Virus record (IMG/VR): IMGVR_UViG_3300042534_000747
Origin: a virus
Length of the DNA: 64,000 nt
Reading direction: 5' to 3' (one strand)
Shown: positions 48,791 through 49,081 of the stretch, piece by piece
Numbering within the stretch: position 1 is the first letter of the stretch
Layout of the letters: every line of letters starts with the position of its first letter
The notes under the pieces: generated by a model
Databases searched by the model: none
Seen by the model: the letters and a program-made list of their open reading frames with translations, nothing else
What the model was told of the DNA's origin: nothing
Program-made: the position numbers and the translations under genes

Positions 48791-48837
48791 GCAAAATTTA
48801 AGATACATTTAAATATAATGAAGTACATTGTAAGGGT

Positions 48838-49081
48838 GTAACAAAATACAAATTATTAAATTAACAATACTGATATATACAAATGAATACAAATACAGTA
48901 TTGTTAATAGATAGTCTTTGGTAGATACAAAGTAAATTCAGAACATCTGATTTTATTTATTTTATCACCTACAATATCAGAGACTATCGATTTAACACTT
49001 ATGGAATCTTTGGTGGTTTTTATCACCTACAAACTTTAATTACCATCAAAGATTTATCCACTTATTCTATTAAAATTTTTT
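48838..49081 (+). ncRNA. Candidate three-hairpin sRNA carrying two anti-leader (TTTTATCACCTACAA) loops
   Basis: ACATTTAAATA promoter at ~48804; stems 48860-72/48896-908, 48910-21/48977-88, 49005-17/49042-54; no ORF; T-run at ~49076. Confidence 0.6.

Follow-up and report, generated by a model that had tools for sequence, protein, structure and literature searches.

Small RNAs that mask ribosome-binding sites are already known in archaea. The candidate described here stands out because a giant archaeal virus-like element carries it and because its proposed address is a 5' tag on that element's own mRNAs. Masking of ribosome-binding sites is the mode of action of two M. mazei RNAs, sRNA154, whose loop 2 contains the anti-RBS, and sRNA41 (review PMC5867862). 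The candidate resembles these RNAs in being archaeal, in having a promoter of its own (predicted here) and in holding an anti-RBS in the loop of a stem-loop. sRNA154 and sRNA41 have several mRNA targets and repress translation initiation, and the same is proposed for the candidate from sequence alone. In contrast to the M. mazei RNAs, with which it shares no sequence or Rfam relationship, the candidate lies on a large virus-like mobile element and not on a chromosome, and its box is duplicated. Its target would also differ, being a stereotyped 5'-terminal tag of initiator plus Shine-Dalgarno (SD) site on the element's own mRNAs, whereas sRNA154 and sRNA41 act at sites internal to metabolic operons.

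Bacteria have multi-target sRNAs, such as RNAIII of S. aureus and RsaE/RoxS, that use C-rich loop seeds to pair with Shine-Dalgarno sites. As in those RNAs, repeated pyrimidine-rich loop boxes would give one RNA reach to many ribosome-binding sites, but the candidate belongs to another domain of life and its seed is a specific 8-15-nt box instead of a generic CCC or UCCC. The c4 RNA of P1 and P7 and the CI RNA of P4 are antisense immunity RNAs of temperate elements that silence transcripts of their own element; they act on one bacterial-phage operon, in P4 by way of transcription termination. The candidate is likewise a small structured RNA near an integration module, with short repeated boxes that are predicted to pair with the element's own transcripts. 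Unlike c4 and CI RNA, however, it would address about a dozen dispersed promoter-proximal mRNAs and not a single operon. To our knowledge, the regulatory RNAs of archaeal viruses and of large archaeal mobile elements are almost unstudied.

The window, by which we mean the whole stretch of 64,000 nucleotides that was analysed, is part of a 202.5-kb contig (according to the protein index) and has a G+C content of 25%. It is densely filled with short genes of no assigned function and with genes of virus or mobile-element type, and it contains a tRNA cluster. A tyrosine integrase adjoining a tRNA-Leu gene and a serine resolvase are encoded, as are a Thg1-like enzyme, a gp17-type superinfection-exclusion protein, an HD-domain protein, YopX and thymidylate synthase. 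The sRNA candidate locus is 2.3 kb from the integrase and tRNA-Leu, and the turning point of the cumulative GC skew is near 54 kb, away from the locus. We treat the window as a piece of a large archaeal virus-like element because relatives of the transglutaminase-like protein encoded next to the locus sit on large virus-like contigs that have genes for ribonucleotide reductase, DNA ligase and RNA ligase. Among these contigs is G001, a 183-kb IMG/VR genome with terminal repeats that is rated complete. The MAGs reached through the same protein, from Woesearchaeota and an 'uncultured archaeon', are GC-rich and uninformative. No relatives of the flanking 79-aa proteins were found in IMG/VR, the coiled-coil profile and the 196-aa protein of one predicted target each matched only itself, and a search of a phage database gave no match.

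The tRNA-Leu(taa) gene and the integrase gene, which encodes a protein of 537 aa, adjoin each other at 44527-46561. An independent Logan contig (L001, from SRR35183614, 17.3 kb) is identical to the window across the 721 bases compared around the sRNA candidate locus. This contig starts just before the stop end of the integrase gene, at about position 44,912 of the window, and this boundary suggests that the 44.9-62.2-kb stretch may be a separable island inside the larger element.

The candidate occupies a 388-nt gap (48791-49178) that has no + strand ORF of at least 30 aa with a start codon. An earlier note on this DNA had described the unit as free of ORFs, with a cassette-type TATA at one end and a T-run at the other, and all three features are present. 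The BRE/TATA-like promoter is ACATTTAAATA at 48805-48815 (+), with the TATA itself at 48808 and AAGATAC just before it, and it resembles the cassette promoters of the element (AAACAYTTAWATAC). The combination AAGATAC-TTTAAATA is common to this promoter and to an ORF-less unit at 24291 on the - strand. Transcription is predicted to start at an initiator-like GTGTA (48836-48840, +), 28-29 nt past the start of the TATA. Compared with the rule TATA(8)-N21-TTGTA, to which we return below, the GTGTA agrees at four of five bases and its spacing is one base short. Archaeal RNA polymerase terminates at oligo-T, and the T6 run at 49076-49081 (+) is a candidate terminator. A further initiator-like motif, TTGTAATAG, lies directly 3' of the T6 run (49076-49090).

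Very probably, the unit is an as yet uncatalogued gene for a small structured RNA. Rfam covariance models placed only tRNAs above threshold in the window and nothing at threshold in 48700-49200. A box C/D sRNA and a CRISPR array were rejected as readings of the unit. The top Rfam match was to the box C/D RNA SNORD72, at 27.5 bits and below the gathering score of 43, and the unit has no RUGAUGA and no CUGA after the box. A CRISPR mini-array would have at least three regular identical repeats with unique spacers; the locus has just two 15-nt copies, 58 nt apart, each in its own hairpin. A 6S-like polymerase decoy would be a long rod with a central bubble, and the predicted fold consists of three separate hairpins.

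The number and arrangement of these hairpins are as first described, in an uninterrupted series, but their stems are 13, 14 and 14 bp long and not 13, about 12 and 13 bp. Each hairpin was folded and compared with shuffles, and its stability is given here as a z score. Hairpin 1 (48860-48908, +) has a perfect 13-bp stem and a 23-nt loop that holds two AUACAAA boxes (z -5.4). Hairpin 2 (48910-48988, +) has a 14-bp stem with two G-U pairs and a 51-nt loop (z -5.8), in which an inner hairpin is followed by an unpaired box that abuts the 3' arm. Hairpin 3 (49004-49055, +), which also has a 14-bp stem with two G-U pairs, has a 24-nt loop (z -5.5). It is a tandem copy of hairpin 2 that has diverged, and the two have the arm cores TCTTTGGT / ATCARAGA in common. 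The whole unit folds at -70 kcal/mol on the + strand (z -8.8) and at -61 kcal/mol on the - strand (z -3.95). We compared the stem pairs by script and by hand. On the - strand, each of the four G-U pairs of the window stems would become an A-C mismatch, in agreement with the earlier claim that they work on the + strand only. Counting one more from a related contig described below, all five wobble pairs across four hairpins are G-U on the + strand.

The 15-mer TTTTATCACCTACAA, which we call the anti-leader box, occurs exactly at 48960-48974 and again at 49018-49032, both on the + strand. Each copy is predicted to be unpaired in a loop, as had been supposed, and folding gives CACCUACAA a predicted probability of being unpaired of about 0.98-1.0 in the first copy and about 1.0 in the second. 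Allowing up to two mismatches, the window has six matches to TTTTATCACCTACAA, compared with 0.72 expected. Its reverse complement is exactly TTGTAGGTGATAAAA, an idealised initiator plus SD plus spacer. Where the canonical anti-SD tail has CCUCC, the box has CCUAC, and it reaches on into the initiator of the element. There are also four extra copies of ATACAAA, at 48846, 48877, 48887 and 48925, where 0.06 would be expected (P 6e-7), and the density of TACAA at the locus is the highest anywhere in the window on either strand. The two-box pattern had no match in IMG/VR, and in metagenomes a scan for ATCACCTACAA...ATCACCTACAA met nothing but tandem and coding repeats that are unrelated to the unit. 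IMG/VR scans with patterns of promoter plus leader, TATA...box and box plus 3' arm gave chance or coding matches only.

The complement of the box is found at the starts of the element's own genes. The 10-mer TTGTAGGTGA occurs exactly at 2452, 3930, 11093, 23732 and 51311, in each case directly upstream of a start codon, and all five exact sites outside the locus are therefore start regions. Near matches are found at 8092 and 33585 (9/10), with 8-nt cores at 3181 and 43829; these and the exact sites are those that the earlier note had pointed out. With one mismatch allowed, the window has 16 matches where 4.2 would be expected, a number that none of 100 shuffles attained. The 10-mer had been taken for a leader or RBS. 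This is correct for its Shine-Dalgarno part, but the 10-mer also includes a putative initiator, a TTG whose distance from the TATA start is always 29 nt. The cassettes share a design in which an 8-bp TATA is followed by exactly 21 nt, TTGTA and then, 15-17 nt after the TTG, the ATG. The pattern TATA(8)-N21-TTGTA has 16 strict sites in the window, half of which (8/16) read TTGTAGGTG or TTGTAAGGTG. Examples of strict sites are 2461, 3939, 8101, 11102 and 23741 on the - strand and 33585 and 51311 on the + strand.

The transcription start of an archaeal promoter lies about 30 nt downstream of the first base of its TATA box, and it is this geometry that leads us to place the start of the cassette mRNAs at the TTG. 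With TTG(TA) as the putative initiator, the cassette mRNAs would probably start at about 5'-GUAGGUGA and thus have their Shine-Dalgarno site at the extreme 5' end. With such a start, only about 8 of the 10 nt of the 10-mer would be RNA. The GGTG-type start regions in the window are dominated by TAGGTG (13) and AAGGTG (12), and GAGGTG is absent. The cassette promoters also contain AACACCTAC, 12-19 nt past the TATA and opposite GTAGGTG. With a start at the TTG, the upstream arm of this CACCTAC...GTAGGTG dyad would lie in untranscribed promoter DNA. Many promoter copies have AACACC 12-17 nt past the TATA, which makes a CACC...GGTG dyad around the start site.

Predicted targets with the initiator plus SD tag are found on both strands. 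The tag at 51311-51320 (+) precedes a gene at 51326-51916, with TATA-N21-TTG and an ATG 15 nt after the TTG, and its predicted pairing with the box is worth -14.6 kcal/mol. The other exact tags are on the - strand, at 2452-2461 (gene 2230-2445), 3930-3939 (gene 3701-3922), 11093-11102 (gene 10628-11086) and 23732-23741 (gene 23526-23726). Two tags match at nine of ten positions, one at 8092-8101 (-; gene 7624-8085; -15.2 kcal/mol) and one at 33585-33594 (+), upstream of a YopX-like gene (33601-34008). The predicted target products are small proteins without assigned function and the one YopX-like protein.

The pairing of the box with start regions is selective by computation. Leaders of the element are enriched among predicted targets, as the proposal of a leader-directed RNA had implied, with 14 of the 121 start regions (11.6%) pairing with the 15-mer at -12 kcal/mol or better, compared with 0.7% of random 33-mers, although part of this enrichment is automatic because any sequence containing UCACCU matches start regions in which the SD is AGGTGA. 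Shuffled boxes reach a mean of 0.46 start regions at this cut-off, and 0 of 300 reach 14. With a model mRNA beginning 5'-GUAGGUGA, the box forms 8 bp at -13.5 kcal/mol, and the canonical 16S tail gives -8.3 kcal/mol. Overall, the box duplexes range from -13.5 to -15.2 kcal/mol, compared with -6 to -10 kcal/mol for the canonical 16S tail, and the box has an advantage of about 5 kcal/mol over this tail, which may not be that of the host. If transcription starts at the G of the TTG, the CAA at the 3' end of the box would have no RNA partner, and the conservation of the CAA would be unexplained by pairing.

A relative of the unit is present in the Logan contig L126 (from SRR31818012). It is at the same place, between a transglutaminase-like gene (54% identity) and a coiled-coil gene, the homologue of which has 31% identity and a recognisably conserved promoter. 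The promoter and 5' UTR of the coiled-coil gene (TTTTATATA...TTGTATTGTTCTAATACG) are kept in L126. The L126 unit consists, in order, of TTTATATA, exactly 21 nt, TTGTAATATGG, a 12-bp hairpin and T-runs, and its promoter follows the rule TATA-N21-TTGTA without deviation. The hairpin (GGTTTCCGATAG / CTATCGGGAACC, with one G-U pair; z -4.4) differs in stem sequence from those of the window. Its 30-nt loop has a small inner hairpin and then an unpaired ATCACCTACAA against the 3' arm, the same layout as in hairpin 2, and the predicted probability of being unpaired for CACCUACAA in L126 is 0.74-1.0. This ATCACCTACAA is the sole same-strand 11-nt word common to the intergenic regions of the window and L126, and the chance of finding it in 266 nt is about 5e-5, as estimated from base composition. 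With the 3' arms aligned by hand, the stems of the window and L126 differ by three double (compensatory) changes, three single compatible changes and no disruptive change. The covariation that the earlier note had suggested looking for in related genomes is thus seen within the scope of one sequence pair, in which the box is kept and the stem has compensatory changes. As a control, we considered the IMG/VR matches to TATA...ATCACCTACAA, and among the 80 listed of the 88 matches, the box was in a comparable stem-closed loop in none (0/80). The unit is absent from L127, L128, L002, L005, L159 and L160, and L126 is the only one of eight transglutaminase-like relatives to keep it. L126 also has a 33-codon ATG ORF (2018-2119, +) that opens 6 nt past the point where transcription is predicted to start and that spans the hairpin; this ORF is not conserved in the window.

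The promoters of G001 have the same design, TATA-N21-TTGGTGATTCAAAATG, with a different leader, and 11 of them have GGTGATTC. Over the element and G001 together, the ATG comes 13-17 nt after the TTG. Sites include 7743, 8372, 53736, 89773 and 108990. A CACC...GGTG-like pair is also found in G001 promoters. In the 183-kb G001 genome, no hairpin RNA complementary to the leader TTGGTGATTCAAAATG was found. Since G001 has the same promoter design and no matching RNA was found in it, the anti-leader device does not appear to be general to the family. An intergenic stretch of G001 (106800-106930) is structured, GC-richer and has a T-arm resembling that of a tRNA (GGTTCGAACCC); it may be a tRNA or a tRNA-like RNA.

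The window has further hairpins that look like promoter-driven hairpin RNAs. These long-stem hairpins are intergenic, at 19281-19355, 19396-19464 and 19511-19590 (+), and at 18568-18625, 24652-24698, 25258-25359, 46649-46712, 53671-53746 and 57012-57079. Their stems are 13-20 bp and their loops 19-62 nt, and several start 26-30 nt after a TATA. The three hairpins at 19.3-19.6 kb have related stems (GAAGATARTYC) with compensatory differences. Given how many there are, hairpin RNAs seem to be part of the element's repertoire. There is also a second ORF-less unit, at 24195-24291 (-), with the promoter AAGATACTTTTAAATA. It is predicted to give a near-unstructured RNA of about 50 nt that has two exact ACCUCCAUAAA boxes (the canonical anti-SD core), with long T-runs after it. 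Compared with the start regions of the window, this RNA (24262-24195, -) had no preferential pairing; its best start region in the window is that of the transglutaminase-like gene, at -10 kcal/mol.

We consider it quite likely that the candidate unit is a functional + strand RNA. As to what such an RNA would do, we tentatively favor, at somewhat under an even chance, a trans-acting sRNA that masks the initiator plus SD tag with which about a dozen mRNAs of the element would begin. An RBS-occluding sRNA acting in trans had been proposed at the outset, and the proposal holds in silico for the RNA-gene architecture, the open boxes, the selective pairing with start regions and the conservation of the box in L126. 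RBS masking gives no role to the four AUACAAA boxes or to hairpin 1. Alternatively, the RNA would be structured but its conserved boxes would act through a protein or a machine and not by pairing with mRNAs, either as a sponge or decoy for a CACCUACAA- or UACAA(A)-binder or as a mimic of the initiator template (5'-TCACCTACAA-3') that soaks up the transcription machinery in the manner of 6S RNA. The locus has six UACAA boxes in 247 nt, compared with 0.5 expected, and they form the densest cluster of the window and are mostly predicted to be single-stranded. The CAA end is kept in all three copies of the box though its counterpart may precede the first base of the mRNA, and the box is the template strand across the initiator. 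However, no candidate binding protein was found, and L126 has just one or two UACAA boxes. For its recruitment, archaeal RNA polymerase depends on TBP and TFB bound to double-stranded TATA/BRE DNA, which an RNA loop does not supply, and the fold lacks the long rod and central bubble of a 6S-like RNA. We think action through a protein or machine unlikely. It is rather improbable that the locus works as DNA, with CACCTAC half-sites for a factor that binds a CACC-N-GGTG dyad (an operator cluster or decoy), or as a replication or recombination site near the integrase that is marked by the inverted repeats. The cassette promoters do carry AACACCTAC opposite GTAGGTG, probably upstream of the start site, G001 promoters have a similar CACC...GGTG pair, and the tyrosine integrase and tRNA-Leu are 2.3 kb away. 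But the boxes at the locus are direct repeats without a dyad partner, and their match to the leader complement (10-15 nt) is better than that to the promoter arm (7 nt). The five wobble pairs that form on the + strand only, the much better folding of that strand, and the promoter spacing and T-runs kept around the hairpin in L126 all argue against a DNA site, and the GC skew turns near 54 kb and not at the locus.

The boxes could also be relics, namely inverted remnants of two - strand cassette promoter-leaders, with hairpins that are incidental or serve as terminators or insulators for the upstream operon. On the - strand the boxes indeed read TTGTAGGTGATAAAA, the idealised initiator plus SD plus spacer, and in L126 a GTG at the canonical distance opens a 21-codon frame. 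We find this origin very doubtful, as the - strand has no TATA 29 nt upstream of either box and no AACACC box, the window copies have no start codon, and there is no conserved - strand peptide. A relic would also leave unaccounted for a box that is exact while its surroundings have diverged and that is always in a stem-closed loop. Least of all do we expect the unit to encode a small protein, which is extremely improbable. The 33-codon ATG ORF of L126 reads ...IITYNYRE... and a 64-codon open frame in the window reads ...FITYNIRD..., but the window frame has no ATG, GTG or TTG upstream of the motif and the two window boxes, being 58 nt apart, are in different frames. In the 3'-arm alignment the frame of the window is shifted by one base relative to that of L126, which makes the likeness of the peptides incidental.

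If RBS masking is the correct reading, the mechanism could be as follows. A structured + strand RNA of about 240 nt would be made from its own TATA and initiator, or be released from the 3' end of the transcript of the upstream zinc-ribbon gene. Its three long stems would keep the RNA rigid and expose two identical single-stranded UUUUAUCACCUACAA boxes, each of which could form an 8-10-bp duplex with the SD-bearing 5' end of a cassette mRNA. The duplex would block the site needed by the 30S subunit and so turn down translation of the whole set of mRNAs, and the stability of the mRNAs may change as well. Four points here are inferred: that the RNA is transcribed, where it begins and ends, that it pairs in vivo and that its effect is repression. 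It is also conceivable, though somewhat unlikely, that the RNA is an immunity or timing switch, in which the two anti-tag loops turn off (or stabilise) a tagged, dispersed regulon while sparing host messages. The distance of 2.3 kb from the integrase and the predicted pairing of repeated boxes with the element's own mRNAs are consistent with an immunity RNA.

This locus offers a concrete case that can be tested cheaply, with one small RNA, one tag of 8-10 nt and roughly a dozen predicted targets with a common promoter design. Should RBS masking be confirmed, the tag together with its anti-tag could serve methanogens as an orthogonal switch of translation. The promoter design, here and in the 183-kb relative, implies an unusual class of mRNA in which the Shine-Dalgarno site forms the 5' terminus, and this bears on how archaeal 30S subunits load onto near-leaderless messages. 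If the RNA is an immunity or timing switch, the element would practise self-addressed riboregulation, directing an RNA of its own to its own messages through a 5' tag that is encoded in their promoters.
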